From assembly GCA_963699535.1 (NCBI GenBank), contig CAVOUJ010000031.1, positions 51,086 through 115,085 of the forward strand: a DNA stretch of 64,000 nucleotides, given 5' to 3'. The DNA is from an uncultured beta proteobacterium (GTDB lineage: Bacteria > Pseudomonadota > Gammaproteobacteria > Burkholderiales > SG8-39). Positions 398 to 24,317 of this stretch are shown here, piece after piece. A model generated the notes under the pieces. It was not told the origin of the DNA and did no database searches. It was given only the letters and a program-made list of their open reading frames with translations. Made by a program: the position numbers and the translations under genes. Each line of letters starts with the position of its first letter. The stretch's first letter is position 1.

Positions 398-1186
398 ATG
401 AGGCACGCGGAGGAGATGGAGCAGCCAGGTCCGAACGCCGAACATCCGAGGCTGCTGGCGTTGCGCCGCCGCGGCTTCTACCTCCTGCCCAATCTGTTCA
501 CGACCGCTGCGCTGTTCGCCGGCTTCTACGCCATCGTGCAGGCGATGAACGGCCGCTTCGAGCACGCCGCAATCGCGATCTTCGTCGCCATGGTGCTCGA
601 CGGTCTGGACGGCCGCGTCGCACGATTGACACACACGCAGAGCGAGTTCGGCGCCCGGTACGACAGCCTGTCCGACATGGTGTCGTTTGGCGCGGCCCCT
701 GCTCTAGTCGTGTACGAATGGGCGCTGAAGGACCTCGGCACGGCAGGGTGGGTCGCCGCCTTCGTCCACTGCGCCGGTGCGGCGCTGCGCCTGGGGCGCT
801 TCAACGTCAACATCGACGTCGTCGACAAGCGCTACTTCCAGGGCATTCCGAGCCCCGCCGCCGCCGCGCTGCTTGCCGGCCTCGTCTGGGCTTTCGACGA
901 CCTCGGGATCGAGCGCGAGCCCTGGCTCAACTTCATCGCCTGGGGCTTCACGATGTTTGCGGGCATCACCATGGTCACTAACGTACCGTTCTACAGCTTC
1001 AAGGAACTCAATCTGAAGAAGGCCGTGCCGTTCTGGGTCATGCTGCTCTTGGTCGGCGGGCTCGCTGTGGTGTCGCTGCGGCCCCCCGTTGTGCTGTTTC
1101 TCGCCTGTCTGGCTTTCTCCCTGTCGGGCTACGTGCTTTGGGGCATGGGCGTCCGCGTGCGCCGTCTGTCCGACGCGCCGCACTAG
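398..1186 (+). CDS. pssA: CDP-diacylglycerol--serine O-phosphatidyltransferase
   Basis: 262-aa ORF with a complete CDP-alcohol phosphatidyltransferase motif (DGRVAR-x8-G-x3-D-x3-D in ..VLDGLDGRVARLTHTQSEFGARYDSLSDMV..) and several TM helices. Confidence 0.9.
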   Translation: MRHAEEMEQPGPNAEHPRLLALRRRGFYLLPNLFTTAALFAGFYAIVQAMNGRFEHAAIAIFVAMVLDGLDGRVARLTHTQSEFGARYDSLSDMVSFGAAPALVVYEWALKDLGTAGWVAAFVHCAGAALRLGRFNVNIDVVDKRYFQGIPSPAAAALLAGLVWAFDDLGIEREPWLNFIAWGFTMFAGITMVTNVPFYSFKELNLKKAVPFWVMLLLVGGLAVVSLRPPVVLFLACLAFSLSGYVLWGMGVRVRRLSDAPH

Positions 1187-1299
1187 AAGACCGCAGAGGC
1201 TTCCACTACAAACTGGGTTAACCGAGCCAGCGGACACGACGTGCGGGGCCCAGCGGCTCCATGACGGTGTGATTGCGGTTCGGAGATTCGGGAATTTCA

Positions 1300-1339
1300 C
1301 TGTAGTCTTAATGTCATCAATTCGTCGCGATTCTGTAGC
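1300..1339 (+). promoter_or_regulatory. Pho-box-like array: four heptamers in exact 11-bp register (CTGTAGT ctta ATGTCAT caat TCGTCGC gatt CTGTAGC)
   Basis: Read directly from an AT-richer intergenic patch about 60-100 nt upstream of the GTG at 1399. The 7+4 periodicity and the TGT(A/C)A core match the enterobacterial PhoB box CTGTCAT-N4-CTGTCAT. A possible -10 (TAGGGT, 1350-1355) lies 10 nt downstream. Confidence 0.4.
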
Positions 1340-1398
1340 AAATCCTTCGTAGGGTACGCCTCGGTACGGGGACTCTTCCCCGCAGACGAGGAGAACGC

Positions 1399-2010
1399 GT
1401 GATCAAGAGCTTTCTGGAGGCCCTTCAAACGCAGCGCTGGGACGACCATCGCTACTATCACCACAGCAGAATCAACCAGACTCTGCATTTCGTGAGCGCG
1501 TCGAGCTTCCTGTGCGCATACGTCATGCTGTTTTTCTACCCTGTGGCGGCCGCCCTGGTCGGATGGCTGGTGGCGATGACCACGCGGCAGGCAGGGCACT
1601 TCTTCTTCGAGCCGAAGGGCTTCGACCAAGTCAACCAGGTCACGCACGAATACAAGGAGGAAATCAAGGTCGGCTACAACTTGCGGCGCAAGATCGTCCT
1701 GCTGTCGATATGGGCCTTGTCCCCGGCCGTCCTGCTCGTCGACCCGACGCTGCTGGGTGCGTTCGAGCGTGCCGCGGACGCCCCGGGCTTCGTGCACCAC
1801 GTGGGCAAGATCTGGCTTGTGATCGGCGCGAGCGGACTTGTATTTCGGACAGTGCACCTCTTCTTCATCAGGGACGTGCAGACGGGCCTCGTCTGGATGA
1901 CCAAGATCCTGACCGATCCGTTCCACGACCTGAAGCTCTACCACAAGGCGCCGCTCGCCTTGATGCGCGGCGAGCTGATCGACCCGACGCTGCGGGCGCA
2001 GCGCGGCTAG
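1399..2010 (+). CDS. DUF962/Mpo1-like membrane protein (tentative family)
   Basis: 203-aa ORF with a GTG start preceded by GAGGAG. It has about 4 predicted TM helices. The N-terminal H-x4-N-x3-H spacing (HHSRINQTLH) matches what I recall for the DUF962 (yeast Mpo1) family. Confidence 0.55.
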   Translation: MIKSFLEALQTQRWDDHRYYHHSRINQTLHFVSASSFLCAYVMLFFYPVAAALVGWLVAMTTRQAGHFFFEPKGFDQVNQVTHEYKEEIKVGYNLRRKIVLLSIWALSPAVLLVDPTLLGAFERAADAPGFVHHVGKIWLVIGASGLVFRTVHLFFIRDVQTGLVWMTKILTDPFHDLKLYHKAPLALMRGELIDPTLRAQRG

Positions 2011-3653
2011 AAGCGTTGCGCGATCATCTCGCGCAGGATCCCGCGCTTGATCGCCCGGTTGGAGAGGGTCGGATCGGACCACCACCACCCATCCCGTTCC
2101 ATCGCCCGCGCGGCGGCGACGAACCGGTCGCACACCGCGGCGAAATCCGCCTCCGAGTAGTTGAGGCTGAAGATCAGCCGTCCGGTTCCGACCCAGCTGA
2201 GCGCGAGACCCTCCGCGCGCAGGTAGTACTGCAGCATCCAGTTGTAGCGCGAGGGCCGCGTATAGCAAACGGTCCAGATCGAGGACAGGTTGGCGACCCG
2301 CGCCGGCAACCGCGCGTTCTCGAGATGCGCGTTCAGCGCCCTCGCGCGGTTGTCCCAAAGGTCGTCGAGCCCCTGATACAGGCCGCGGAATGCCGGCGTC
2401 TCGATGCGCTCGAGAAACACCTGCATCGCGCCCATCACGTAGGGATGCGAGTTGAAGGTCCCGCGTGCGAAGCAAATGTCCGCCGGCCGGTCCTCGCGAT
2501 ATCGCCGCATCAGATCGGTACGCCCGCACACCACGCCGACGGGGAAACCGCCGCCGAGAGTCTTTCCGTAGGTCACCATATCGGCGCGCACCCCGTAGTA
2601 CTCCTGCGCGCCGCCGGGGGCGAGGCGGAAGCCGACGAAGACCTCATCGAAGATCAGCACGATGCCGCGCGCCGTGCAGACCTCGCGCAGGCGCCTCAGC
2701 CAGGTGGCGTAGGCTTCGCGATCGAAGTGCGCGCTGCGCGCGCTGTCGACCAGGGATCCGTCCGAGGGTGCGTTGACGTTGGGGTGCAGCGCCTGCAACG
2801 GATTCACCAGCACGCAGGCGATGTCGCGGCGCCGGCGCAGCACGCGCAGCGAGTCCTCGTCCATATCCTTGAGCGTGTAGGTCTCGCGCTGGATCACCGG
2901 GTTGCCGATACCAGGCTGCACGCCCTCCCACCAGCCGTGGTACGCGCCGCAGAACCGAACGAGATGCGTGCGCCGGGTGTGAAAGCGGGCGAGGCGCACC
3001 GCCTGCATCACCGCCTCGGTGCCGGACATGTGGAACGACACCTCGTCCAGCCCGGATATCTCGCGCAGACGGCGCACGTTGTAGGCGACCGAAGGATGGT
3101 AAGCGCCCAGCACCGGGCCCAGGTCGGCGGCGCGCGCGCTGCCCTCAGCCATGCAGGTCTTGTAGAAATCGTGGCCGAAGAGGTTCACGCCATACGAGCC
3201 GGCGAGGTCGTAGAAGCGGTTGCCGTCGAGGTCGGTCACCGTGACCCCGTCGGAGGATTGCAGGAAGGCGCCTGCCTTCATGTGCTCGCGCACGTACCGG
3301 CTGTACTGAAACGGCACTCGATAGCGGCTGGTGAACTGCAGGTCGGAGATCGCGTTCTCCGCCTCCGCGGTGAGGGCGGCGCCGCGCGCATAGTGCCGTC
3401 CATAGAACTCCGCCAGCTTCGCGAACCCGGCGCGCCGCCGTTCCACGACTTCGGCGGGCGCGGCGTCGGAGCGGAAGAAGCGCTCCTCGTCGTAGGCGTA
3501 GTACGGGACCAGCGCCGCCACGCGCCGCGCGATACGCGCGTGGCCCGAGAGCGATGGGTGTTTGGCCCTGGAAAGCTCCAGCCGCAGGCGCAGAGCCGGC
3601 AGCAAGAACGCCACTGCCGCCGCCAGTCCAACCCAAATTGCGGTTTGCTGCAT
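2007..3653 (-). CDS. Class-III PLP aminotransferase / glutamate-1-semialdehyde aminomutase-like enzyme with an N-terminal TM anchor
   Basis: 548-aa ORF. It has SGTEAV and PLP-lysine contexts (..MVTYGKTLGGGFPVG..) typical of the GSA-aminomutase/class-III fold. There is an N-terminal hydrophobic helix (AIWVGLAAAVAFLLPAL) and an AAGGA RBS. Its 3' end overlaps the convergent gene by 4 nt. Confidence 0.85.
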   Translation of the reverse strand: MQQTAIWVGLAAAVAFLLPALRLRLELSRAKHPSLSGHARIARRVAALVPYYAYDEERFFRSDAAPAEVVERRRAGFAKLAEFYGRHYARGAALTAEAENAISDLQFTSRYRVPFQYSRYVREHMKAGAFLQSSDGVTVTDLDGNRFYDLAGSYGVNLFGHDFYKTCMAEGSARAADLGPVLGAYHPSVAYNVRRLREISGLDEVSFHMSGTEAVMQAVRLARFHTRRTHLVRFCGAYHGWWEGVQPGIGNPVIQRETYTLKDMDEDSLRVLRRRRDIACVLVNPLQALHPNVNAPSDGSLVDSARSAHFDREAYATWLRRLREVCTARGIVLIFDEVFVGFRLAPGGAQEYYGVRADMVTYGKTLGGGFPVGVVCGRTDLMRRYREDRPADICFARGTFNSHPYVMGAMQVFLERIETPAFRGLYQGLDDLWDNRARALNAHLENARLPARVANLSSIWTVCYTRPSRYNWMLQYYLRAEGLALSWVGTGRLIFSLNYSEADFAAVCDRFVAAARAMERDGWWWSDPTLSNRAIKRGILREMIAQRF

Positions 3654-3675
3654 ACAGAATCCTTTTCCGATCTTT

Positions 3676-3693
3676 ACTACAGGAGCGTTACAG
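3676..3693 (-). promoter_or_regulatory. Pho-box-like direct repeat CTGTAAC gctc CTGTAGT in the 44-nt divergent intergenic region
   Basis: Two heptamers spaced 11 bp apart, read on the minus strand. It uses the same CTGTAGT half-site as at 1300. It overlaps the RBS of the PSD gene and lies 22 nt from the aminotransferase ATG. Confidence 0.3.
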
Positions 3694-3697
3694 TCCC

Positions 3698-4564
3698 ATG
3701 ACGGTTGGCGCCGTAATGCGACACATCTTCCAGCAGGAAGACGTCAACTTCCTGCTGACCAACCGGATCCCACGGCAGGCGCTCACCCGGTTCATGGGCT
3801 GGTTCAGCCAGATCGAGCAGCCGCTGGTGAGTGAGCTTTCGATCGCGACCTGGCGCCTGTTCGCCGACCTGCGCCTCGGGGAAGCGAAAAAACAGCGCTT
3901 CTCCAGCCTGCACGACTGCTTTACCCGCGAGCTCAAACCCGGCGTGCGCCCGGTCTGCGACGACCCCGGCGTCCTGGTAAGTCCCTGCGACGCAATCGTC
4001 GGCGCCTGCGGCCGGCTCGACGGAATCCAGGTGCTGCAGGCAAAGGGATTCCGCTACACGCTGTACGACCTGCTCGGCGATCCCGAGCTGGTGCGCGCCT
4101 ACCGGGACGCAGCTTACGCGACGCTGCGCATTACCTCGAGCATGTACCACCGCTTCCACGCGCCGCACGATTGCCGCGTGCAGCAGCTGACCTATTTTTC
4201 GGGGGACACCTGGAACGTCAATCCGATCGCGCTCAGGCGCGTGGAGAGGCTCTTCTGCAAGAACGAGCGCGCGATGATCAGAACTCGGCTAGAAGCGGGC
4301 GGCCACGAGGTGTTGCTGGTTCCGGTCGCCGCGGTGCTGGTCGCGAGCATCCGGCTGCATTTCCTGGACGTGCTCCTGCACCTGCGCTATCGCGGTCCGA
4401 ACGTCATCCCCTGCGACGCGCGATTCGCCAAAGGCCAGGAGATGGGTTGGTTCCAGCACGGCTCGACCATCCTCGTATTCGCGCCGCGCGGTTTCACGCT
4501 GCACGAGCGGGTGCGCGAGGGCGTTCGTATCCATGCGGGCGAACCCCTGATGCGGCTGCCCTGA
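3698..4564 (+). CDS. psd: Phosphatidylserine decarboxylase family proenzyme
   Basis: ATG at 3698 preceded by AGGAG (3681-3685). PSD-family sequence with an intact self-cleavage motif (..GWFQHGSTILVF..), LSPxDYHR-like (ITSSMYHRFHAP) and FxKNER blocks. The longer ORF starting at 3554 is rejected. Confidence 0.85.
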   Translation: MTVGAVMRHIFQQEDVNFLLTNRIPRQALTRFMGWFSQIEQPLVSELSIATWRLFADLRLGEAKKQRFSSLHDCFTRELKPGVRPVCDDPGVLVSPCDAIVGACGRLDGIQVLQAKGFRYTLYDLLGDPELVRAYRDAAYATLRITSSMYHRFHAPHDCRVQQLTYFSGDTWNVNPIALRRVERLFCKNERAMIRTRLEAGGHEVLLVPVAAVLVASIRLHFLDVLLHLRYRGPNVIPCDARFAKGQEMGWFQHGSTILVFAPRGFTLHERVREGVRIHAGEPLMRLP

Positions 4565-4565
4565 G

Positions 4566-5363
4566 ATGCAGGGCCCGCTCCTCGCATGGTGGCTGGCGCT
4601 GTGCTCGGCGGCCGTCGTCAATGTCCTCCTTTGGGCATGGTCGGCGCGGCGGCTGGCGGGCCGTGCTGCGCAGATGCCCGCGGACCTCTACGCCTCGCGC
4701 CGGGTCCTCCTGTGGCTGTCGGCCGTCTACGTTCTCGGTTGTGCCTTCAGGTCGATCTTTCCCATGGTCGACGCGCCGCGTATCTGCCTGCACGACACCT
4801 GGATCTCCCGCATCGTCGTCGGGCGCACGCTGGCCACCGCTGCGGAATTGTGCTTCGCCCTTCAATGGGCACTGCTGCTGCGGGAGGCGGGGGCGGGCAA
4901 TCGCACAGCGGCTCTCGTCGGACACCTGATCGTCCCGATCATCGTTCTAGCCGAACTCGCCTGCTGGGTCGCGGTGCTGACCTCGAACTACCTGCCCCAT
5001 GCGATTGAAAACTCGCTCTGGACGCTCGTAGCAGCGCTCGCGCTCGCGGCATTCCTGTCCTTGCGTCCACGCGCCGAAGGCGGGGTGGCGCGATTCCTCG
5101 AAGCCGCCAGCGTGTGCGCGGTGATCTATCTGGCGTTCATGGTGACGGTGGACGTGCCGATGTACCTGTCGCGCTGGCAGTCAGCCGAAGGCGGCAGCCT
5201 GGCGTTCGGGGACGGGCTGCGCACCCTGTTCGGGCGCTGCGTCGTGGAGCGCGAATGGGACGTATGGCGCCAAGACGCGCTATGGCAGTCGCCCTATTTC
5301 AGCGTCGTGGTATGGACCAGCATCGCGCTTGCGCATGCGCCGCGGCTCAGGACTTCGACATGA
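4566..5363 (+). CDS. Uncharacterised polytopic membrane protein
   Basis: 265-aa ORF starting 1 nt after the PSD stop (TGA g ATG). It has 6-7 hydrophobic helices and coding-like codon usage. I do not recognise the family. Confidence 0.6.
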   Translation: MQGPLLAWWLALCSAAVVNVLLWAWSARRLAGRAAQMPADLYASRRVLLWLSAVYVLGCAFRSIFPMVDAPRICLHDTWISRIVVGRTLATAAELCFALQWALLLREAGAGNRTAALVGHLIVPIIVLAELACWVAVLTSNYLPHAIENSLWTLVAALALAAFLSLRPRAEGGVARFLEAASVCAVIYLAFMVTVDVPMYLSRWQSAEGGSLAFGDGLRTLFGRCVVEREWDVWRQDALWQSPYFSVVVWTSIALAHAPRLRTST

Positions 5364-5409: not shown

Positions 5410-7293
5410 CTACTTGAGCGCCCGCGGCAGCCACGTGGAAAGCACCGGCACGTAAGTGATCACGAGGACGCCCAGCGCGAGCACGCCCAGCGCCGGCAGC
5501 ACCGAGCGGACGACTTCGCTCACCGGCTTCCCGAAGCGATAGGAAGCGAAGAACAGGTTCATGCCCACGGGCGGCAGGAGGAATCCCAATTCCATGTTGG
5601 CGAGGAAGATGATGCCCAGATGCAGCGGGTCGATCCCGAAGGCGAGGCCGACCGGCACGAGGAGCGGGGTCACGACGATGATCGCCGAGAAGATATCCAT
5701 AAAGGCGCCGACAAGTAACAGCAGCAGATTCAGTGCGAACAGGAACACCCAGGGCGAAGAAATGGCGGTGCGCACCCATTCCGTGGCATTGTCGGGAATC
5801 TGGGCGTCGAACAGAAAATTCGTGAACCCGAGGGCCATGCCCAGGATGAGAATGATGCCGCCGACAAGTAGGCCGCACTCGGTCATCACTCTGGGTGCGT
5901 CGCGCGCAAAGGACAGATCGCGGTAGAGCGCAACTTCAACGACAAAGGCGTAGAACGCCGTTAAAGCCGCGGTCTCGGTGGGCGTGACATAGCCGCTGAT
6001 CAAGCCGCCGAAGACTACGAACGGAGTGGCGAGCTCCCACTTTGCGTCCCAGATCGCCGTGCGGGCTTCGCGCCAATCGAAAGGACTCGGCGCCGCGTCC
6101 CTGGGCTGCCGCTGAACTCCGAGCCAACCGAGCAGGCCCGTCATTACGGCGGCAGGCAGCAGAGCCGCGAGAAACATGGTTTCGATGGGCTGGCGCGCAA
6201 TGATGGCGTAGAGGATGAGCGGCAGCGAAGGCGGGAGCAGGACGCCCAGCGAACAGCTGCTCGTGATCAGCCCGATGCTTGCGCGTTCGGGGTACTTGAC
6301 GCCCAGAAGGAGGGGCATCAGCAGGCCGCCGAGAGCGACGATGGTCACGCCGGACGCGCCTGTAAACGATGTGAAGAATGCGGTCAAAAGCACCGAGACT
6401 AGGGCCGCCCCTCCGCGGAAGCCGCCGAACAAGGCCTTGAAGACGCGGATGAACCGGCGCGGCGCGCCCCCCTCCGCAAGGAAATATCCCGCCAGGGCGA
6501 AGAGCGGAATCGCCGGCAGCGACGAATTGACGGTGAGGCGGTATTGATTCAAGGGAACAGTCGCGATGGGCAGGTCTGCGCCGGCAAAAAGGACCAGCGC
6601 GGCACCGCCGAGCGCGATGAAGACGGGCGCACCGAAGACTGCAGCGAGGAGAACCACGGCGAGGCCCGGTCCCGCCAGCGCTCCCGGATGGGAGGCGAGC
6701 AGTACGGCGGCGGCCGCGAGGAGCCCGGCGAGAACCACCGCCGCGGTGCGAAGTGCAAGGCTCTCCGCAGCCTGGACCACGAGCCGCAAGGCAACGATGG
6801 CGAAACCGAGCGGCATGACCGACTGAACAACCCAAAGTGGAATTCCGTAGGCGACGATGCCTCCACCCGCGCGCTCGGCAAGCGCGAAGTCGCAGCTGGC
6901 GACAAGCAGGAAACCGGTGACCGCGACTGCGACACCAGCCGCGAAGGCCCGGACGATCGCGCGCGCAGCAGTCGGGAGAACATCGCCCAGACTCGCGAGC
7001 GAGAGCAGGCGAGCTTCGCGCGCCGCCACGGCGGCACCGAGCATGCCCACCACGAGAACCAGGTGCTGCACCAAGGTGGCGGCATTGGCTATTCCAATGC
7101 CGAAAGCGCCGCGCAGCAGGATCTCCGCAAGTGGCAGGACCACCATTGCGCCGAGAACCAGGGACAAGCCCAGGTCTTCGGCACGGTGGAGGATCTTCCG
7201 CCGTCCCAGCCGCCCCAGGCGATCTTGAGAGTGGACGGGATCGCTCGCCCGCGTCAACGGCGGATCACTTGGAGGAGCCGGCCCGGTAGTCAC
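5410..7293 (-). CDS. TRAP transporter fused small/large permease (DctQ-DctM fusion)
   Basis: 627-aa highly hydrophobic ORF. The N-terminal ~170 aa are DctQ-like and the remainder is DctM-like (..GGFRGGAALVSVLLTAFFTSFTGASGVTIVALG..). Confidence 0.9.
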   Translation of the reverse strand: MTTGPAPPSDPPLTRASDPVHSQDRLGRLGRRKILHRAEDLGLSLVLGAMVVLPLAEILLRGAFGIGIANAATLVQHLVLVVGMLGAAVAAREARLLSLASLGDVLPTAARAIVRAFAAGVAVAVTGFLLVASCDFALAERAGGGIVAYGIPLWVVQSVMPLGFAIVALRLVVQAAESLALRTAAVVLAGLLAAAAVLLASHPGALAGPGLAVVLLAAVFGAPVFIALGGAALVLFAGADLPIATVPLNQYRLTVNSSLPAIPLFALAGYFLAEGGAPRRFIRVFKALFGGFRGGAALVSVLLTAFFTSFTGASGVTIVALGGLLMPLLLGVKYPERASIGLITSSCSLGVLLPPSLPLILYAIIARQPIETMFLAALLPAAVMTGLLGWLGVQRQPRDAAPSPFDWREARTAIWDAKWELATPFVVFGGLISGYVTPTETAALTAFYAFVVEVALYRDLSFARDAPRVMTECGLLVGGIILILGMALGFTNFLFDAQIPDNATEWVRTAISSPWVFLFALNLLLLLVGAFMDIFSAIIVVTPLLVPVGLAFGIDPLHLGIIFLANMELGFLLPPVGMNLFFASYRFGKPVSEVVRSVLPALGVLALGVLVITYVPVLSTWLPRALK

Positions 7294-8281
7294 GAAGCAG
7301 GCGCGTGACTTCGTCGAAGGTTTCCGCAGACACCAGCGTCCCCCGGATCCTCGGATAGACGCTCTCGGCGAACCTGCGCCATTCGGACTCCAGGTCGGGG
7401 GTCAGCTTCGTCACCTGGAGTCCCCGCTTCTGCATGGCGGCGACCGCTTCGTCGACTTCCGCCCGCGCCCTGGAGCGCATCTGTGCGCCCGAGGTCACGG
7501 CCGCGACTTTCAGGGCTTCGCGGCCCGCCGGACTCATGGCATTCCAGGCCTTGGCCGTGATCACCAGCGCGCCCACGATGGGCGCCCAATTGAGATCGAG
7601 CATGTGGGGCGCAGGTCCGTTCAACTGAGCTGCGAGGGCATAGTAGGGAGTAGCAGGCACGGCGTTGATCAGTCCGGTCTGAAGGGCGGGAAGGATGTCC
7701 GCGGTCTCAAGGGCGACCGGCTGATAACCCAGGCTCTTCATGATCTGCATCTGCTCGGGTTCGCCCGCCCAGGCAAACATCTTCATGCGCTTGTAGTCCT
7801 CCGGACGGCGCGCGGGTTCATGGGAGAAGAAACGGACCCAGCCGGCGTCGCCCCATAGGAGCACGACGAAGCCCTTCTCCAGAAACTTCTTCTCCAGCGC
7901 GGGCCTCATTTTTTCGCGGACGTAGTCCAGTTCGTCCCAGTCGCGAAACATGAGGGGCAGGCTCTGCAGGGCGGAGACCGCGGTATCGATTTCGCGCAGT
8001 CCGACGACGGTGATGAGGCCGGCGTTCAACTGACCGATGCGCATGCGCTTCACGGTGTCGATTTCACCGCCCTGGGTGCCGTCCGTGTACGCCGTGAAGG
8101 TCGAGCCGTCGTTCTGCGCTTTCTTCCAGACCTCCCCCATTTCGAGAAGGGCCCGGTGGTAGAGGGAATTCTTGGGTATCAGGGTACCCAAACGCAGCTT
8201 GACCGGCTCCGCAAGCGCGGCGTGGCCGAACACAAGCGAAGCCGCGGCAAGCAGGAGCGCGGACCGGTTGAGCCAGTGCAT
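7265..8281 (-). CDS. TRAP transporter DctP-type periplasmic solute-binding protein
   Basis: 338-aa ORF with a signal peptide (..LLLAAASLVFGHAALA-EP) and DctP-family sequence. It overlaps the permease start by 29 nt. Confidence 0.9.
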   Translation of the reverse strand: MHWLNRSALLLAAASLVFGHAALAEPVKLRLGTLIPKNSLYHRALLEMGEVWKKAQNDGSTFTAYTDGTQGGEIDTVKRMRIGQLNAGLITVVGLREIDTAVSALQSLPLMFRDWDELDYVREKMRPALEKKFLEKGFVVLLWGDAGWVRFFSHEPARRPEDYKRMKMFAWAGEPEQMQIMKSLGYQPVALETADILPALQTGLINAVPATPYYALAAQLNGPAPHMLDLNWAPIVGALVITAKAWNAMSPAGREALKVAAVTSGAQMRSRARAEVDEAVAAMQKRGLQVTKLTPDLESEWRRFAESVYPRIRGTLVSAETFDEVTRLLRDYRAGSSK

Positions 8282-8284
8282 GGT

Positions 8285-9274
8285 CTACTCCGTAAAGAAC
8301 TCGTCTGCCCGCTCGAGCAGCCACCTCGCCCGGCGTTGCATGACGAGGTTGGCGAGACGCCACTCTGGCGCTGCGTCGGGATCCACACTCAGCGCTTTTC
8401 GCAGCAGGGCCACGAATTCACCTCGATTTCGGGTCGGCACCGACACCGCTTCGGCAAGGGAAACATGAGGCGCGGCCTGGCGTCCCCCGGACAGTTCGAG
8501 CGCACGGCGGTAGTGGTCGCGCGCCGCGGATTCCGGCCTGCCACCCCCACGGGCCATTTCGAAGGTGATCATGAAGACATGAAGCGCGCCGTGATCGAAG
8601 GCTTCGTCCAGCGCGAGGGCGCGTTCGGCGATGGGTCCGAGGAGCGGCGCATCGGCAACCGCTTCCGGATCGTCTTTCGCCAATGCCACCATCGCGGCCC
8701 ACGAGGCCCCGGTCCAATAGAGGCCCGGCACGTCCTCCCGGGCCATCGCGGCGAGCGCCTCGGCCGGGTTCCTTGCCAGGGCCGCTCCGAAGCCGGGGTG
8801 GTTCACTTCGAGCGCGCGGAGCCCGTAGTCGCGCGCTCGCCGATAGAGTTTTCGCGCGCGTTCGCGCAGCCGGTGGGCGGCAGCGACGTCCCTGTCCTCG
8901 ATCTCGTCCGCATCCTGTTGAACGAAGGCATAGGCGTACTGCGTGAAAGCCCTGGCGGTCGCGACGAGCAGGCCGGAGTGGTCCGGCCGCTCGACGAGTA
9001 CGCTTTCCATGAGCTTGAGCGAGAAAGGCGCAGCGGCCCGCACGAGCTCCGGATCGTCGTCCGAAGCGTAGGCCCCACCGCCGGCACCGAGGGTGTCTCC
9101 GAGGCCGCTGACGCCAAGCTGTCGGAACGAGCAGCCGCCTGCCGCCGCAAGAGGCAGCAACAGAGCGAGGAAAGCCAGACAGCGCAAGCGACCCGGGAGA
9201 GGCCGCGACGCGGGAATCAAGCAACTCGGTCGGCGTGCGATCCAACGTCCATCGACCTGAAGGCCATTAGCCAA
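8285..9274 (-). CDS. TatT-family TPR lipoprotein associated with a TRAP transporter
   Basis: TatT-like C-terminal sequence (..AERALALDEAFDHGALHVFMITFEMARGG..SLAEAVSVP..ANLVMQRRARWLL..). Lipobox LAAAGGC. An alternative TTG start at 9187 would give a clean lipoprotein signal (RCLAFLALLLPLAAAGGCS). Confidence 0.75.
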   Translation of the reverse strand: MANGLQVDGRWIARRPSCLIPASRPLPGRLRCLAFLALLLPLAAAGGCSFRQLGVSGLGDTLGAGGGAYASDDDPELVRAAAPFSLKLMESVLVERPDHSGLLVATARAFTQYAYAFVQQDADEIEDRDVAAAHRLRERARKLYRRARDYGLRALEVNHPGFGAALARNPAEALAAMAREDVPGLYWTGASWAAMVALAKDDPEAVADAPLLGPIAERALALDEAFDHGALHVFMITFEMARGGGRPESAARDHYRRALELSGGRQAAPHVSLAEAVSVPTRNRGEFVALLRKALSVDPDAAPEWRLANLVMQRRARWLLERADEFFTE

Positions 9275-9300: not shown

Positions 9301-10565
9301 TTAAGGTCGTGTGACGGCAAGTCCTGGGTTCGCGCGGGTCCTCGCGGAAGGATTCGACGCCGCTTCAAACAGCGCCGCCTCGAGCTCCGGAAGCTTGTCT
9401 TCCCAGGGGATCGCCTTTGCGACGCGCCGGGCCTCGCGGCCGAGCGCGTGCCGCAGGGCGGGGTCGCGCGCGAGCAATTCGGCGAGGTGCGTAAGCAGTT
9501 GAGCGTCTCCGCGAGGAGCCAGCAGGCCGCTCTCCGCGTGGACGATGTGCTGCCGGGCGGCCGCGTCGTCGTACGCGACCACCGCGAGCCCGCTCGCCAT
9601 CGCCTCCAGCACGACGTTGCCGAAGGTTTCTGTGATGCTCGGAAAGAGGAATACGTCGGCGGAGGCGTAATGCGCGGCGAGGTCCTCGCCGGCCCGCGCA
9701 CCGGTGAAGCGGAATTCCGGATTGCGCCTCTGGAGCCCGTCCCGCCGCGGTCCGTCGCCGACGACCACCACCCGTATCCTCGGGTCGATCCTCTGCATCG
9801 AACGCGCGGCGCTCGCGAAGAGCTCCAGCCCCTTCTCGGGCGCGACCCGGCCCACCGAAACGACCACCAACTCGTCGCCCGAGCAACCCCATTCTCGCCG
9901 CAGTCCTGCGCTGCGCCGGGCCGGGTTGAACAGCGCCGCATCCACGCCCCGGCCGGCGACGCGCAGGCGCTCGATGCCCAGGTGATCGAGTTCCGACTTC
10001 AGCTGTTCTGTCGGCACCAGCGTGCATTCGGTGCGGTTGTGCAGTCGCCGCAGGTAGCCCGCGACCGCACCTTGCATCCAGCCGAAGCCGTAGTGAGCGC
10101 TGTAGGCGTGGAAATTGGTGTGGAAGTCCGAGGTCAGGGGAATGCCAAGCGCGTCCGCGGCCGATATCGCGGCCCAGCCCAGCGGTCCCTCGGTGACGAC
10201 ATGCACGAGGTCGGGCCGCATCGAGCGCCAGTGCGCAGAGAGCCGGCCCGGCAGGGCGAAGCCCAGCTGCACCTGCCACCGGGGAACGACGACGCCTAGG
10301 GTGAGCGTTTCACGAGACCGGGATGCGGGGCGCGGACGGGTTCGCGGCGCTGCCGCGGCCGTACCAGCTCGACCGCGTGTCCGCGCGCCAAGAGCCAGTC
10401 GACCGTCAGCCCGATGGTGCGGGCGACGCCGTTGATCTCGGGGGGATAGGTCTCGGTGACTACCGCGATACGGAGGCGCCGCGGCGGGCCCGGGTTTGCG
10501 CCGCCGCCGGGGATCTCGGCGGCATCTCTCTCCTCCGACATGGCGGCGAAGTGTTGCAGTGCCAT
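9301..10565 (-). pseudogene. GT4-family (GT-B) glycosyltransferase, frameshifted near 10315-10330
   Basis: The N-terminal fragment (10296-10565, ..RIAVVTETYPPEINGVARTI..) and the C-terminal fragment (9301-10272, ..FLFPSITETFGNVVLEAMASGLAVVAY..) lie in different frames. The upstream extension of the C-terminal frame reads ETLTLGVVVPRWQVQLGF. Confidence 0.8.
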
Positions 10566-10682: not shown

Positions 10683-11414
10683 CTACGCGAGATTGCGCCG
10701 GAAGCGGTAACCCGTTCCCCGGACCGTTTCCACGAGACGATCGTGCCCGGTCCGTTCCAGCGCCTGTCGCAACCTGCGGATGTGGACGTCCACTGTGCGT
10801 TCCTCGACGAACACGTGGTCGCCCCATACCTCATCGAGCAGCTGGGTTCGGCTGTAGACGCGCTCCGTATGGGTCATGAAGAAATGCAGCATCCTGAACT
10901 CGGTAGGCCCCAAGTCAATGTTGGCCCCCGCGGCGCTGACGCGGTGCGCGACGGGATCGAGCCCGAGTCCTCCGATTTCCACGACGTCGTCGGTGAGCTG
11001 AGGCGCGCGCCTCCTCATCACGGCCTTGATGCGCGCCAGGAGCTCCCGCGGCGAAAACGGCTTGGTGACGTAGTCGTCAGCCCCGCCCTCGAGTCCGGCA
11101 ACGGTGTCCTGTTCCTGGGCGCGAGCCGTCAGCATGATGATCGGGATGTCCTTGGTGCGCTGATCCGACCGCAGCTGGCGCGCGAAGTTCAGCCCTGGAG
11201 GCCCGGGGAGCATCCAGTCGAGCAGGACCAGATCGGGCAGGATCTCGCGCACGAGCGCCTCGGCCTCCGGGACATTCGCAGCGCGCAGCACCTGATGGCC
11301 GGCGTGCTCGAGGTTGACGGCGATCAGCTCCTGAATCGCAGGCTCATCTTCGACGACGAGGATCGCGCCGCCCATGGCTGCCCTGTTCGGAATTTCGTTC
11401 CACGCCGAGCGCAT
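10683..11414 (-). CDS. phoB: Phosphate regulon response regulator PhoB
   Basis: OmpR-family receiver plus winged-helix domains (..[38 protein letters not shown]..). The ATG overlaps the phoU stop (ATGA-type). An alternative start lies at 11375. Confidence 0.9.
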
Positions 11415-12121
11415 CAGCTGAGTGCCTCGCGCTCAATCACCTCGACCGCAGTGTGGCGGACATCGGTGCCCTTCACGATGTAGATCACGTCTTCCGCGAT
11501 GTTCTTGGCATGATCCCCGATGCGTTCGATGGCCTTGGCAATCCACACGGTTTCCAGGGCGGTGGAGATTGTTCGCGGATCCTCCATCATGAACGTGACG
11601 AGCTGCCGCAGGATAGAGCGGAACTCCGTATCGATCGCCCTGTCATCGCGGATGATCCCTGCGGCCTGGGCCGCGTCCAGGCGCGCAAAGGCATCGAGCG
11701 CCCGGCGCAGCATCGATATGGCGATGTCGGCGGCGTGACGGATGTTTGGAAAGCGCTGCGGGTTCATCCGCCCGCGTTCGTGGATTTGCTTGGACATGCG
11801 CGCGATCTTCTCGGCTTCGTCACCGATGCGCTCCAGATCGGTGACCGCCTTGCTGATCGCCATGATGAGACGCAGGTCATTCGCCGCCGGTTGGCGTTTG
11901 ACGATGATATGGCTGCAGTCGTTGTCGATGGTGACCTCGCACTCGTTCACCCGGGCCTCGCTCGCGATCACCTGGTCGATGAGGTCCGTGTTCCCGCTGG
12001 AAAAGGCATCGATGGCGCCGCGGATCTGCGCTTCGACCAAGCCGCCCATCTGCAGCACGCCCGAACGCAGCGTTTCCAGATCCTGGTCGTATTTCTTGGA
12101 AAGATGATCGGTCTGCACCAT
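11414..12121 (-). CDS. phoU: Phosphate signalling complex protein PhoU
   Basis: Two PhoU repeats (..[11 protein letters not shown].. and ..[16 protein letters not shown]..). Start chosen at [15 protein letters not shown]. Confidence 0.9.
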
Positions 12122-12131
12122 GAGGACTCCT

Positions 12132-12923
12132 TCAGCCGAAGCGGCCGGTGATGTAGTCTTCGGTTTCCTTCTTCTTCGGCTTGATGAAGACTTCATCGGT
12201 CACGCCGAACTCGATCAGCTCGCCGAGATACATGTAGGCAGTGTAGTCCGAAACGCGCGCCGCCTGTTGCATGTTGTGAGTCACGATCACTATCGTGTAG
12301 TCGTTCTTCAGCTCGTGAACGAGCTCTTCGATCCTGCCAGTGGAAATCGGGTCGAGCGCCGAGCACGGCTCATCGAGCAGCAAGACCTCGGGTTTGACGG
12401 CTATGCCGCGCGCGATGCACAAGCGCTGCTGCTGACCGCCCGACAAACTCGTGCCACTCTGCTTCAGCTTGTCCTTCGCCTCCTCCCAAAGTGCGGCCTT
12501 GCGCAGCGCCCACTCGACGCGCTCATCCATTTCCCTCAGGGTGAGAGTCTCGTAGAGGCGCACGCCGAATGCGATGTTGTCGTAGATCGACATCGGAAAA
12601 GGCGTCGGCTTCTGGAAAACCATGCCGACTTTCGCGCGCAGGCGGTTCAAGTCATGGCTCGGAGCCAGAACGTTTTCCCCATCCAGCAGGATTTCACCCT
12701 GCGCCTCCTGACCCGGATACAGCGCGTACATCCGGTTAAGGGTGCGCAGCAGCGTCGATTTCCCGCAGCCCGAGGGGCCGATGAACGCGGTCACCTTTCG
12801 TTCGGGAACCTCGAGGTTGATCTCTTTCAGGGCATGGAAGGTGCCGTAGTAGAAATTCAGATTCCTCACCAGGATTTTTTGTGCAACGGCCTCGTCGACC
12901 GGTTGCAGGACGGCGGCGTTCAT
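12132..12923 (-). CDS. pstB: Phosphate ABC transporter ATP-binding protein PstB
   Basis: Walker [10 protein letters not shown], signature LSGGQQQRL and Walker B LLLDEP. Start at MNAAVLQPV, just after the pstA stop. Confidence 0.95.
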
Positions 12924-12927
12924 AGTT

Positions 12928-13773
12928 TCAATATGTTGGGGTTCGTTCACGGAAGAATACGCGAGCCAGCACGTTGAGGACAAGCACGCTGAACGTGATG
13001 AGGAGCGCGCCCGCCCATGCGAGTTGCTGCCAGCTTTCGTACGGACTCATCGCGAACTGAAAGATGACCACGGGAAGGTTGGCCATGGGGGCGTTCATGT
13101 TGAGAGACCAGAATTGATTGTTCAGCGCCGTGAACAGCAGCGGCGCGGTCTCGCCGCTGATGCGTGCCACGGCGAGCAGAATGCCGGTGATGATACCGGC
13201 CTTGGCGGCGCGCACGGTTACGAACAGGATCACCTTCCATTGGGGTGCGCCCAGCGCCGCGGCCGCTTCGCGCAGGCTGTCGGGCACGAGGCGAAGCATG
13301 TTCTCAGTGGTCCGGATCACGACCGGGATGACGATCAAGGCGAGCGCCATGATCCCCGCCCATGCCGAGAAATGCTTGACGCGCACTACGTATGCCTCGT
13401 AGATGAACAAGCCGATCACGATGGAAGGCGCAGAGAGCAGGATGTCGTTGATGAAGCGTGTCGCCGGGGCAAGCCAGCCGCGGCTTCCGTATTCGCCGAG
13501 ATAGATCCCGGCCATGATGCCGATCGGCGTTCCGAGCAGCGTGCCCGCCGCGGCCATGATCAAGCTGCCCGCAATCGCATTCAGGAGCCCTCCGCTGCTG
13601 CCCGGGGGCGGCGTCGTCAGCAGAACCAGGTCCGGGCTGATCGCCCTGAACCCCGCCTCGAAGAGCGTGATCAAGATCCAGCCCAGCCAGAACAGCCCGA
13701 ACACCATCGCCAGCAACGACACGATCAGGTTGAAGCGGTTGATGAACAGCCGGCGCGTGTAGAGGCTCATCAT
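12928..13773 (-). CDS. pstA: Phosphate ABC transporter permease PstA
   Basis: 281-aa permease with an EAA-loop (..[17 protein letters not shown]..) in the pstSCAB context. Confidence 0.95.
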
Positions 13774-13783
13774 CGCGGCAAGC

Positions 13784-14803
13784 TCACGTCTTCTGCCCTT
13801 CCGCCTTTGCGAGCTGCATGAGAAGCAGCTTGGAGCAGGCCAGCACCACGAACGTGATCAGGAAAAGGATGAGGCCGAGCTCGATCAGCGAGGAAAAGTA
13901 GAGATCGCCTACGGCTTCGGTAAATTCATTGGCGAGCGTGGAGGCGATGCTGCTGCCCGGCGCCATCAGTGAGGTGGCGAGCCCATGGGCGTTGCCGATG
14001 ACGAACGTGACGGCCATGGTCTCGCCCAGGGCCCGGCCCAAGCCCAGCATGATTCCGCCGATCACGCCGACCTTGGTGTAGGGGAGCACCACGTGCCAGA
14101 CGACTTCCCAGGTCGTCGAGCCGAGCGCGTAAGCCGATTCCTTCAGCACTGCCGGCACGATATCGAACACGTCCCGCATCACCGAAGCGATGAACGGGAT
14201 GACCATGATGGCGAGAATGATGCCCGCCGTGAGAATGCCTATCCCCATCGGAGGTCCCTGGAACAGGCTGCCCGCAAGCGGGACCGCGCCCAGTGTGCTG
14301 GTGAGCGCCGGCTGAACGTAAGTCGCGAACACCGGGGCGAAGACAAACAGCCCCCACATGCCGTAGATGATGCTCGGAATCGCGGCCAGGAGCTCGATTG
14401 CAGTTCCCAGCGGCCGCCTCAGCCAGACCGGCGACAGTTCCGTAAGGAACAATGCGATGCCGAAACTCACCGGAATGCCGATCAGGAGGGCAATCAAGGA
14501 AGTCACCAGGGTGCCCACGATCGGCACCAAGGCACCGAATTCCTCGGTGACGGGGTTCCAGTGGGAGGTTGCGAGGAACTTGATGCCGAACGCGTTGAGC
14601 GCCGGCAGGCTGCCGACGATCAGCGTAATGATGATACCGGCGAGCAGAGCGAGGACGAGGAACGCAAACACGCGCGTCGCGTGGCGGAACGCGTGGTCAA
14701 GCCAGTACTGCCTTCTGAGACGCGCTTTTGAGATCGACACCGTGGAAATGTCGGAGAGGCCGCGGGGAAGCCTCTCCATCACGTTGTTGGCCACGGTGCT
14801 CAT
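13784..14803 (-). CDS. pstC: Phosphate ABC transporter permease PstC
   Basis: 339-aa permease (..[22 protein letters not shown]..) in the pstSCAB context. Confidence 0.95.
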
Positions 14804-14837
14804 TCTAGTCGCTCCGGTCGCCCCGCGCGGTTGCCCG

Positions 14838-15896
14838 CTACCAGATCGCTTTGCCGCCCGCGTCCTTGATCTGGCTCCTCCAAGCCGACTCCACCAGCTT
14901 CACGACGTCGTCGGGCATGGGAATGTAGTCGAGCTCGAGCGCCATTTGGTCACCGCTCTGGAAGGCCCAACTGAAGAACTTCAGCACCTCTTTCGCCCTG
15001 TCGGGATTGGCCTGAGACTTGTGCATCAGGATGAAAGTGGCGCCGGTGATGGGCCAGCTGTTCTTGCCGGGCTCGTCAGTGAGGATCTCGTAGAATCCCG
15101 GCGCGTTCTTCCAGTCGGCGCCTGCCGCCGCAGACTGGAAGGTCTTGTCGTTCGGCGCCACGAATGCTCCTTCCTTGTTCTGCAGCAGGGTGTACGCCAT
15201 CTTGTTCTGTTTGGCGTAGGCGTACTCGACGTAGCCGATCGCGCCTTTGATGCGTTGCACGAAGGAGGCGACGCCTTCGTTGCCTTTGCCGCCCGAGCTC
15301 GTCGGTGCCGGCCACGACACTGACGCGTTGTTGCCGACCTTGTTCTTCCACTCGGCGCTCACTTTGGACAGGTAGTTCGTGAAGATGAAGGTGGTTCCCG
15401 AGCCGTCCGCCCGATGGACGACGGTTATCGCCTGGTCCGGCAACCTGAGGTCGCTGTTGAGGCTGGCGATCCGGGAATCGTTCCACTTACTGATCTTGCC
15501 GAGATAGATGTCGGCGAGCACGTTCCCGGTCAGTTTCATCTGGCCAGGTTTCACGCCCTCGATATTCACCACGGGCACCACGCCGCCCATGACCATCGGA
15601 AACTGTACGAGGCCGTCTTTGGCGAGTTCGTCGGCTTTCAGGGGGGCGTCCGAAGCGCCAAAATCAACCGTCTTTGCTCGGATCTGCTTGATGCCGCCGC
15701 CGGACCCGATCGACTGGTAGTTCATTCCTACGCCTGTCTTTTGCCTGTAGGCCTCCGCCCATTTGGCGTAAATCGGGTAGGGGAACGTCGCTCCGGCGCC
15801 GGTGATGTCGGCGGCCGAGCCGACTGGGCTCAGCAGGCCCAGCGCGATCGCCGAGGCGGCGAGGAAACGTGTTTTGCGAAGATGTGTGATTTGCAT
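14838..15896 (-). CDS. pstS: Phosphate ABC transporter substrate-binding protein PstS
   Basis: PstS sequence (..[22 protein letters not shown]..) with a signal peptide. Start at MQITHLRK, preceded by GGAGG. The longer ORF to 15974 is rejected. Confidence 0.9.
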
Positions 15897-15952
15897 GGAA
15901 CCTCCAAGAAATGTCAGAACTGTGGGAAGCTCATGCATCGTACTGAACCGAT

Positions 15953-15970
15953 ATTTCAGAAAAATTACAT
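15953..15970 (-). promoter_or_regulatory. Candidate Pho box ATGTAAT tttt CTGAAAT upstream of pstS
   Basis: Located in the AT-rich 15897-16079 spacer. It matches CTGTCAT-N4-CTGTCAT at 11 of 14 positions with correct 7+4+7 spacing. A possible -10 (TACGAT) lies 10 nt downstream, and the box is about 57 nt from the ATG. Confidence 0.4.
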
Positions 15971-16079
15971 TCACAATAAATAAATATTTGAATCCTTAGT
16001 CAATACATTCAATAGCTTGCGTTCTCTTGGAGTCGCGTCAGCAACTGCTGAGTGTTTCGAGGGGGATCGCCGAGAGCCG

Positions 16080-17138
16080 TCACCGCACCTTGATTTCTAT
16101 CCACATGCGGTTCAGAAGCCGCCGCTGCCTGCGGTCGAGATCGTGAAGCATCTCCATGCGCTCGATCGCGGCCTTGTCGGGGAACACCGCCCGGTTTTGC
16201 GCGATATCGGGGTGGATGTACTGCATCGCGTCGGCGTTGGGATTGCCGGCGCCGATGGCATTGGTCAGCTCCGCCGAATTGCGGCCGTCGAGCATGAAGT
16301 CCATGAAGCGGTGCGCGAGGTCCGGGCGCGGGCCGCTCTTGTGCAGCACCATGTTGTCGAGCGCGAGCACCGCGCCTTCCTTCGGCGTCGAGTAGCCGAT
16401 GGTGAACTTCCGGCCGGCGGCCTTGGCGTCCTGGGCCGCGGTGAACATGTCGTTCGAATAGCCGTGCGCGAGCCAGATGTTGCCGACGGTCAGCTCCTTG
16501 ATGTAGGAAGCCGCGTTGAACGCCGCCCAATAGGGCTTGGCGCGCAGGATCAGGTCGCGCGCCTTCTTCCAGTGCGCCTCGTCGACGTCGTTCACCGAGT
16601 AGCCGAGGTATTTCAGCGCGGCGGCGATGAGCTCCCTCTGGCTGTCGAGCACGGTGACCTTGCCCTTGATGCGCTCCAGGTACCTCGGCTCGAAAATCGC
16701 CGCCCAGGTGTCGGTGGGAATACCTCGCTCTTTCATCTTCTCGACGTTGTAGCCGAGGAGCGTCACCGAGTAGGCGTAAGGGACCGAGTATTGGTTTCCG
16801 GGATCGAAGAACTCGCCCATGAATGCGGGCTTGATGTTCTTCAGATTGGGCAGGAGGCGCTTGTCCAGGGGCCGCAGGGCGCCTTGCTGGATGAGGTTCT
16901 GGACCGCGTTGCCGGTGGGCACCAGGATGTCGTAGCCGGTCGCCCCGGCGGCGAGCTTGGCGAGCATCTCCTCGTTGTCGGCGTAGTAGTCCTGCACGAG
17001 CTTGCAGCCGCAGGACTTCTCGAAACGCCTGACCGTATCCGGCGTGATGTAATTGTTCCAGTTGTACAGGTGCAGCACGTCCGCGGCCGCTGCGGGCAGG
17101 GCCGCAAGGAGCGCCGGAACCCAAAGCCACGAGCGCAC
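16080..17138 (-). CDS. potD: Spermidine/putrescine ABC transporter periplasmic binding protein
   Basis: PotD/PotF-family sequence (..LHLYNWNNYITPDT..YDILVPTGN..). GTG start at 17138, just after the potC stop. The long ORF to 17909 is an out-of-frame read-through artefact. Confidence 0.85.
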   Translation of the reverse strand: MRSWLWVPALLAALPAAAADVLHLYNWNNYITPDTVRRFEKSCGCKLVQDYYADNEEMLAKLAAGATGYDILVPTGNAVQNLIQQGALRPLDKRLLPNLKNIKPAFMGEFFDPGNQYSVPYAYSVTLLGYNVEKMKERGIPTDTWAAIFEPRYLERIKGKVTVLDSQRELIAAALKYLGYSVNDVDEAHWKKARDLILRAKPYWAAFNAASYIKELTVGNIWLAHGYSNDMFTAAQDAKAAGRKFTIGYSTPKEGAVLALDNMVLHKSGPRPDLAHRFMDFMLDGRNSAELTNAIGAGNPNADAMQYIHPDIAQNRAVFPDKAAIERMEMLHDLDRRQRRLLNRMWIEIKVR

Positions 17139-17143
17139 GCGCT

Positions 17144-18829: not shown

Positions 18830-18868
18830 CTCCCCTCGTGCCCTCCCGGCATGGTGGAGCGGGTTCTT

Positions 18869-19955: not shown

Positions 19956-19959
19956 GGGC

Positions 19960-21480: not shown

Positions 21481-21555
21481 GGAGTTGAGACGACCCCGAG
21501 AGAAGGGGCCAATTTACCAGAATTGGTCACAGCCCCCTTCTCCAGCAAGCTCCTC

Positions 21556-22141: not shown

Positions 22142-22168
22142 GGAGCCGCCGCGATTCGAGGCGTTCGT

Positions 22169-23026: not shown

Positions 23027-23039
23027 AGGTTCTCCTCGG

Positions 23040-23771: not shown

Positions 23772-23799
23772 GCGGGCAATGCTAGCAGGTTGGCGAGCA

Positions 23800-23941: not shown

Positions 23942-23943
23942 CG

Positions 23944-24312: not shown

Positions 24313-24317
24313 GTCGG

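Follow-up and report, generated by a model that had tools for sequence, protein, structure and literature searches.

What might a membrane-anchored aminotransferase do beside a phosphatidylserine decarboxylase (PSD), in the neighborhood of genes of the phosphate-starvation response? The question is raised by a 64-kb stretch of contig CAVOUJ010000031.1 from an uncultured beta proteobacterium (the window, by which we mean the whole of that stretch), near the start of which an initial annotation had grouped five genes into one lipid head-group cluster. In order, these encode a 262-aa pssA-like CDP-diacylglycerol--serine O-phosphatidyltransferase (398-1186, + strand); a 203-aa histidine-rich membrane protein resembling DUF962/Mpo1 (1399-2010, +); a 548-aa membrane-anchored, class-III-fold enzyme dependent on pyridoxal phosphate (PLP), called the aminotransferase below (2007-3653, −); a 288-aa proenzyme of the PSD family (3698-4564, +); and a 265-aa polytopic membrane protein of no named family (4566-5363, +). 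All five open reading frames (ORFs), with their strands, coordinates and spacings, were recovered on the window sequence: the DUF962-like and aminotransferase genes converge with a 4-nt overlap, the aminotransferase and PSD genes diverge across a 44-nt gap (3654-3697), and the PSD gene is separated from the 265-aa ORF by 1 nt. A single five-gene unit, however, was not borne out by comparison with related loci. The functional core is, on the evidence of gene co-occurrence, the DUF962-like protein, the membrane-anchored aminotransferase and the PSD (the trio), elsewhere normally joined to a gene for a family 4 glycosyltransferase (GT4). We consider it highly probable that the trio forms the core of a Pho-regulated module for lipid head groups. 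Our proposal for its role, which is tentative and carries considerable doubt, is a PhoB-controlled route that would process the amine head group of phosphatidylserine (PS) and phosphatidylethanolamine (PE) at the membrane and feed diacylglycerol to glycolipid or betaine-lipid synthesis. No published description of the trio, or of the aminotransferase-PSD pair, was found in full-text searches of the literature, in agreement with the initial statement that no described role was known for such a pair.

Conservation and membership of the trio

About 85 related loci were compared; they were fetched through close homologues and a profile scan with the 265-aa protein (479 species, the best 80 loci being kept) and were mapped by tblastn and clustering of ORFs filtered by GC content at the third codon position (GC3). 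Most were contigs of metagenome-assembled genomes (MAGs), and all conclusions on regulation and chemistry were drawn in silico. The recurrent block consisted of a GT4 gene divergent from the DUF962-like gene, which converged on the aminotransferase gene, which diverged in turn from the PSD gene. A PSD gene lay near the aminotransferase gene in 27 of 27 distinct aminotransferase loci, usually divergent and 30 to 150 bp away; the DUF962-like gene was present in 24 of the 27, the three exceptions being contig ends or frameshifted long-read contigs; and GT4 adjoined the DUF962-like gene in about 21 loci. Carriers of the trio were Burkholderiales (including Rhodoferax and Rhizobacter MAGs), Gallionellaceae, Thioalkalispiraceae, Ectothiorhodospiraceae and Thiotrichaceae, and a tblastn search of plasmid records returned the intact trio in Sphingomonas parapaucimobilis YK209 at 55 to 62% identity. 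Its range covers Alpha-, Beta- and Gammaproteobacteria, in neighborhoods that otherwise differ, and it is patchy even within one family, where Rhodoferax and Rhizobacter loci had it and the loci around the 265-aa marker in Malikia and Limnohabitans did not. The other two genes of the supposed cluster were not fixed. A pssA homologue adjoined the trio only in the window and in one relative (loci L001-L003; 78% identity) and is best described as a loose associate; the 265-aa gene has a much wider distribution of its own (479 species when one genome per species was scanned), and most of the best 80 loci lacked the trio.

At the S. parapaucimobilis locus (L087, NZ_CP155753.1), genes resembling a sphingolipid set were seen about 3 to 10 kb from the trio (16278-25572): a class I/II aminotransferase (spt) by an acyl carrier protein and an NAD(P)H-binding protein/reductase, a GNAT-type N-acetyltransferase and a fatty acid desaturase, with the spt, acp and reductase genes 10 kb off. 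Such genes were present near the trio in L087 alone, and none were seen at the other loci. The record itself, a 385-kb 'plasmid', carries lptFG and thus holds core envelope genes.

The PSD passed both curated cut-offs of its family (PF02666, 179.1 bits against 22; TIGR00163, 151.5 bits against 111.75), and the self-cleavage motif G-S-T, previously reported as intact, is indeed present at residues 255-257 (nt 4460-4468). Against E. coli PSD (6L06) the protein scored 94.7 bits, with the active-site Asp and both His aligned; its segments PCDA and YHRFHAP lay opposite PADG and YHRVHMP of the E. coli enzyme, whose active-site residues are D90, H144 and H147 in mature numbering. By homology, the window protein is a standard self-processing decarboxylase with PS as its predicted substrate. 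The adjoining pssA product matched PF01066 at 76.6 bits and passed the TIGR00473 cut-off by a narrow margin (111.7 bits against 107).

The aminotransferase is a member of PF00202 (117.9 bits against a cut-off of 30.5), and profile scores place it and the PSD in the families to which the initial annotation had assigned them. Its PLP lysine is Lys364, in YGKTLGGG, which aligns with YGKIIGGG of the aminotransferase domain (AMT) of mycosubtilin synthase MycA. That domain was also the closest solved relative (6KFM, 165 bits), ahead of glutamate-1-semialdehyde (GSA) aminomutases (at most 136 bits), beta-transaminases and a sugar C-6′ aminotransferase; it aminates a carrier-tethered β-ketoacyl chain. 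In the search of plasmid records, the next matches to the aminotransferase after Sphingomonas were nonribosomal peptide synthetase (NRPS) and polyketide synthase domains of Ralstonia. Identity with HemL was considered and rejected, as every hemL model scored far below its cut-off (TIGR00713, 167.7 bits against 527.3; NF000818, 180.3 against 398); moreover, the protein has 548 aa with a conserved anchor, compared with about 430 aa for the soluble HemL. Judged by these scores, the aminotransferase is nearer to enzymes acting on tethered or non-standard substrates than to HemL.

The N-terminus of the aminotransferase consists of a hydrophobic segment followed by a basic motif, RLELSRAKHPSLxGHxRxARR, and then the catalytic domain. 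The hydrophobic segment, annotated initially as a membrane helix, is present as stated, and it was kept together with the basic motif in all 22 full-length homologues examined. Because basic residues follow the hydrophobic segment, the positive-inside rule would place the catalytic domain in the cytoplasm. Such a topology would suit an enzyme acting on a soluble head-group fragment. PlcP would release phosphoethanolamine, for example, and the aminotransferase, as a phospho-lyase or transaminase, would free the phosphate; the anchor would then only hold the enzyme near the membrane, and the PSD would merely boost the flux from PS to PE. It is general knowledge that the class-III fold includes a lyase of this kind, ethanolamine-phosphate phospho-lyase (ETNPPL/AGXT2L1), which detaches the ethanolamine head group with release of the phosphate-bearing moiety. 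An LpxH-like metallophosphoesterase, the kind of enzyme to which PlcP belongs, was found in 7 trio loci, and release of inorganic phosphate (Pi) from phosphoethanolamine is an obvious need in starvation. Yet the anchor and the basic interfacial motif are kept in every homologue, both partner proteins are membrane proteins, and the aminotransferase shows no sequence affinity to the AGXT2L branch, its best solved relative being one that acts on a carrier-tethered acyl chain. The DUF962-like protein, furthermore, would be left without a role. We regard action on a soluble fragment as quite unlikely, and return below to the processing of PS and PE head groups within the membrane.

The DUF962-like protein was assigned to its family with more assurance than the profile allows. 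The similarity stood, in that residues 14-72 (including His17, His21, His22, His30 and His67) align with positions 8-67 of the 95 in PF06127; the score of 22.9 bits, however, is below the Pfam gathering cut-off of 24. The family to which the protein belongs comprises 781 representative clusters. Of nine representatives, five matched PF06127 below threshold (16.4 to 19.4 bits) over the same histidine-rich region and four gave no match; one close homologue, P0340, has a precomputed PF06127 match. An AlphaFold2 (AF2) model had a mean confidence (pLDDT) of 76.6 and no match in the PDB. Yeast Mpo1, of PF06127/DUF962, is an Fe(II)-dependent 2-hydroxy fatty acid dioxygenase; on sequence the window protein is best treated as a distant relative of that family, not as a member.

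The partners of the DUF962-like gene, which was present in 32 related loci, point to head groups. In representative P0370 (420 aa) a PmtA-like methyltransferase is fused to the DUF962-like domain, and in Sphingomonas (L087, 13834-15107) genes for the two are adjacent and translationally coupled in one operon; fusion and coupling suggest that the DUF962-like protein and the methyltransferase act on the same lipid. The Sphingomonas methyltransferase matched the PmtA model over its full length at 136 bits, below the cut-off of 390. We rejected its identification as BtaB in favor of a PmtA-like enzyme, as its likeness to two BtaB proteins, at 31 to 33% identity, was confined to the SAM (S-adenosylmethionine) motif. 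At two loci, L020 (7649-8899) and L013 (a 413-aa homologue), BtaA (DUF3419, 381.7 bits) stood beside the DUF962-like gene, where GT4 is usually found; next to BtaA in L020, no methyltransferase of the BtaB type was identified. The hypothetical gene that follows btaAB in Chondrinema is not DUF962-like.

Pho boxes and the phosphate link

Pho-box-like repeats had been noted in both promoter regions of the locus. A position weight matrix built from the loci themselves picked up a strong Pho-box signal, but such a test is circular, and it was therefore replaced by a search with a fixed, a priori E. coli consensus, CTGTCATnnnnCTGTCAT, which was not derived from these loci. Only two sites with three or fewer mismatches were found in the 64 kb, at 1300-1317 (+) and 3687-3704 (−), each with 3 mismatches; a further site, with 4 mismatches, lay at 3676-3693 (−). 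The repeats are real and make up two arrays. One, 5′ of the DUF962-like gene, consists of four 11-bp repeats (1300-1343, +; CTGTAGTcttaATGTCATcaatTCGTCGCgattCTGTAGCaaat); the other, in the aminotransferase-PSD intergenic region and facing the aminotransferase gene, consists of three (3672-3704, −; CCGTCATgggaCTGTAACgctcCTGTAGTaaag on the minus strand), the first of which overlaps the PSD start codon. Two matches in the window against 2.24 expected by shuffling is a count not above chance; since both sites fall within about 260 nt of promoter, it is their placement and not their number that constitutes the signal. The array upstream of the DUF962-like gene was also seen in L006 and L001, and the intergenic array was kept in L001, L006 and L004. 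Across loci, a site with four or fewer mismatches occurred in 18 of 32 upstream regions of the DUF962-like gene and in 8 of 11 aminotransferase-PSD intergenic regions, compared with 5 to 6% of random segments. No comparable site was present upstream of pssA. From the placement and conservation of these sites we infer that the trio is PhoB-induced. The pstS promoter of the window (15897-15990, −) is AT-rich and has a weak Pho-box match at 15953-15970, with 4 mismatches, which is poorer than the trio sites.

Genes of the Pho type recurred around the trio on contigs that were otherwise different: phoB/phoR, pst, ppk/ppx, PhoD, PhoX, GDPD, S1/P1 nuclease, a PF04185 phosphoesterase and PPK2. Homologues of phoB, phoU and pstB lay near the module in L015, L049, L065 and L077. 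Together with the conserved Pho boxes, these neighborhoods bear out the connection that the initial annotation had drawn between phosphate limitation and lipid remodeling.

The same observations bear on the possibility that the arrangement is a coincidence, with PSD and pssA being ordinary genes of PE synthesis, the aminotransferase and DUF962-like genes being unrelated to them, and the proximity to pst and phoB being due to chance. PSD and pssA do score as ordinary family members, family hidden Markov models (HMMs) detected no second PSD or pssA in the 64-kb window, and the number of Pho-box matches is close to that expected from shuffled sequence. Nevertheless, we consider coincidence very improbable: the aminotransferase, PSD and DUF962-like genes co-occur strictly over three proteobacterial classes in neighborhoods that are otherwise different, the two Pho-box sites are confined to about 260 nt of promoter and recur, conserved and enriched, at related loci, the neighborhoods are repeatedly of the Pho type, and close relatives differ in whether they have the trio, which would not be expected of an essential housekeeping gene.

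A putative route for amine head groups

The route that we tentatively propose would run as follows. Upon Pi starvation PhoB would bind the two Pho-box arrays and turn the genes on. The PSD would then convert serine-type into ethanolamine-type head groups (PS to PE), as its strong homology predicts, with PS supplied here by the adjoining pssA product. The aminotransferase, on the cytoplasmic side of the inner membrane, would take off the primary amine of the head group. It might do so by transamination or, as ethanolamine-phosphate phospho-lyase does, by 1,2-elimination. The histidine-rich DUF962-like protein might, more speculatively, carry out an O2- and Fe-dependent oxidation of the resulting carbonyl head group. 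In this way amino-phospholipid would yield phosphatidate and diacylglycerol, phosphate would be freed, and GT4, or BtaA at other loci, would make a phosphorus-free lipid. What the aminotransferase and the DUF962-like protein would do chemically, and the fate of the lipid, are our inference. In many soil and freshwater bacteria the trio is accompanied by other genes of lipid remodeling, including LplT (481.6 bits against a cut-off of 297), UDP-glucose dehydrogenase, PAP2 and diacylglycerol (DAG) kinase. GT4 is present in most loci and BtaA in L020 while the trio is constant, so that the synthase of the phosphorus-free lipid appears interchangeable and the trio would act on the shared phospholipid side. 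A PmtA-like partner, which also acts on PE, supports action on that side.

The association with GT4 and BtaA could also be read in the opposite sense, namely that the trio, instead of dismantling PE, makes a new surrogate lipid that bears an amine. The substrate would be a phosphorus-free lipid with a serine- or homoserine-type head group (such as diacylglyceryl-homoserine, the BtaA product) or an oxidized GT4 glycolipid; the DUF962-like protein would oxidize, the aminotransferase would aminate, and/or the PSD-like enzyme would decarboxylate, to give a zwitterionic or cationic substitute for PE, which in Sphingomonas would be N-methylated. In favor of this explanation are the close association of the trio with GT4, and with BtaA in L020 and L013, the UDP-glucose dehydrogenase nearby, the PmtA-like methyltransferase fused to or in an operon with the DUF962-like protein, and the occurrence among the solved relatives of a class-III aminotransferase that aminates a sugar C-6′ aldehyde (7LM0). 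It is general knowledge, too, that organisms with only neutral and anionic glycolipids would be without a PE-like surrogate. Against this, the PSD passes the ordinary PS decarboxylase equivalog cut-off with all catalytic residues kept; the head groups made by GT4 and BtaA are chemically unrelated, yet the same trio accompanies both; and pssA adjoins the trio in the window and in L001-L003. We judge a surrogate lipid to be unlikely, if less so than action on a soluble fragment. A version in which all three enzymes work on pyranosyl glucuronosyl-diacylglycerol was rejected on chemical grounds, because a pyruvoyl decarboxylase requires an α-amino acid and the pyranosyl glucuronide has none.

Several points also weigh against the stripping of PS and PE head groups. 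The aminotransferase belongs to the GSA-aminomutase/AMT branch and not to the AGXT2L branch of known phospho-lyases. Membership of the DUF962-like protein in PF06127 is sub-threshold, which makes its nature as an oxygenase uncertain. At L013, L032, L036, L044, L048 and L057 its gene stands next to GT4, BtaA or the 265-aa gene with no aminotransferase and PSD genes, and its substrate can therefore not be the aminotransferase product alone. The trio PSD may be either an extra copy or the sole PSD of the cell; only one PSD and one pssA were detected in the window. Finally, a PlcP-like enzyme already turns PE into diacylglycerol in one step, and a second route looks redundant. We put it somewhat short of an even chance that the trio is an undescribed head-group pathway of the Pho response, which would either strip amine head groups from PS and PE in the membrane by PLP- and O2-dependent steps, as an alternative to cleavage of the phospholipase C type, or make a new nitrogen-containing surrogate lipid.

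Replacement of phospholipids by phosphorus-free lipids is a major survival route of soil, freshwater and marine bacteria under phosphate scarcity, and it alters antibiotic tolerance. To our knowledge, the established toolkit of PlcP, Agt, BtaAB and OlsBA leaves the handling of amine head groups and the sustained flux of diacylglycerol unexplained; a conserved trio with Pho boxes, in remodeling islands of three proteobacterial classes, is a candidate for the missing step. If either the stripping or the surrogate-lipid pathway is correct, the PLP enzyme would be the first of the aminotransferase fold known to work on the head group of an intact membrane lipid, and a first function would be given to the large DUF962-related family and to the membrane-anchored aminotransferase subfamily. 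S. parapaucimobilis offers a culturable carrier of the trio.

Neighboring genes and known systems

Two further observations of the initial annotation on the surroundings were confirmed. Upstream of pssA, a gene resembling PsiE (phosphate-starvation-inducible E) is truncated by the start of the window; its remaining 3′ part (42-293, +; PF06146, 32.8 bits against 23.9) serves as context only. At 10683-15896 (−), ORFs and their translations revealed phoB (10683-11414), phoU (11414-12196), pstB, pstA, pstC and pstS (14838-15896); phoB-phoU-pstBACS comprises the phosphate regulator and the high-affinity uptake operon.

The 265-aa protein, which could not previously be assigned to a family, proved to have no Pfam or NCBIfam match. 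It has 1409 relatives, all named 'hypothetical', with 49 invariant residues, and its AF2 model (pLDDT 91.6) is a confident 7-helix bundle without a solved relative, the top Foldseek match in the PDB having E = 0.011 and a TM score of about 0.5 to rhodopsins. Beside it in the window is a TatT-type tripartite ATP-independent periplasmic (TRAP) transporter operon (5410-9274, −) encoding TatT (8285-9274; PF16811, 271.6 bits), DctP (7265-8281; PF03480) and a fused DctQM (5410-7293; PF04290 and PF06808). The same TatT-DctP-DctQM set adjoined the 265-aa homologue in L008, L032, L033, L036, L043, L044 and L072, and the 265-aa gene was often found alone, or beside a TatT-type TRAP transporter, a low-molecular-weight phosphatase and PhoD, independently of the aminotransferase-PSD pair. 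As a separate associate of Pho-type loci, the 265-aa protein may, judging from these arrangements, form with the TatT-TRAP transporter a second Pho-associated unit; the two are neighbors and not pathway steps of the trio. A glyoxalase-fold (bleomycin-resistance-like) 123-aa gene was seen between the 265-aa and PSD genes in L004 and L005 (10963-11388, −), and also in L021.

The GT4 gene of the window (9301-10565, −; PF00534 and PF13439) is a homologue of the GT4 found beside the trio at other loci. Its top NCBIfam models are lipid glycosyltransferases, every score being below the cut-off. It is split into two reading frames, with a break near 10272-10296 across which intact homologues (L006, L009 and L072) align in frames -1 and -3, and is either a pseudogene or the product of an assembly indel. 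Fragmented or truncated-looking genes were also seen at 16080-19756 and 30052-31371, among them an ABC (ATP-binding cassette) ATPase that begins at profile position 58, a solute-binding ORF with a 290-residue unmatched N-terminus, and a DNA polymerase A domain standing alone in a 439-aa ORF; for these and the split GT4, indel errors of assembly are the probable cause. A search of the 64-kb window gave no PlcP-like, LplT, Ugd, BtaA, PPK or Ppx gene, and Rfam and tRNA scans of it were empty.

Among known systems, the PssA/Psd pathway of E. coli (PDB 6L06/7CNW) is matched by the window pssA and PSD, both above curated cut-offs, with the G-S-T motif and the Asp/His/His residues of the PSD aligned. 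The window PSD differs in its setting: its gene diverges from that of a PLP enzyme, with a Pho-box array between the two, and it belongs to starvation islands. With MycA AMT (6KFM) and HemL the aminotransferase shares its class-III branch and the PLP lysine motif YGKxxGGG; unlike them it is free-standing, outside any carrier-protein or NRPS context, and has a 125-residue N-terminal extension with a membrane anchor. ETNPPL/AGXT2L1 has the fold class in common with it but belongs to another branch, and for the aminotransferase here lyase chemistry is purely hypothetical. The likeness of the DUF962-like protein to yeast Mpo1 and PF06127 lies in the N-terminal histidine-rich region. Neither the window protein nor any relative tested reaches the threshold, the C-terminal two thirds fall outside the model, and the partners are head-group enzymes (GT4, BtaA and PmtA-like), not fatty-acid enzymes.

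The closest parallel in setting is the phosphorus-stress remodeling by PlcP-Agt and BtaAB described in Sinorhizobium, Agrobacterium, SAR11, Pseudomonas and Methylosinus (PMC4796936, PMC9239053, PMC8528852, PMC5082522); these four papers mention no aminotransferase or decarboxylase for the Pho-dependent remodeling systems. Common to those systems and the present locus are Pho regulation (predicted here), a position beside genes of the pst/phoB type and a GT4 lipid glycosyltransferase, to which related loci add an LpxH-like metallophosphoesterase, UDP-glucose dehydrogenase, DAG kinase or BtaA. The window departs from PlcP-Agt in having no PlcP-like gene within its 64 kb and a frameshifted GT4, and in the additional presence of a PSD, a class-III PLP enzyme and a DUF962-like protein. 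Lipid remodeling under phosphate stress is known, and to it the trio of PSD, aminotransferase and DUF962-like protein would be an uncharacterized addition.

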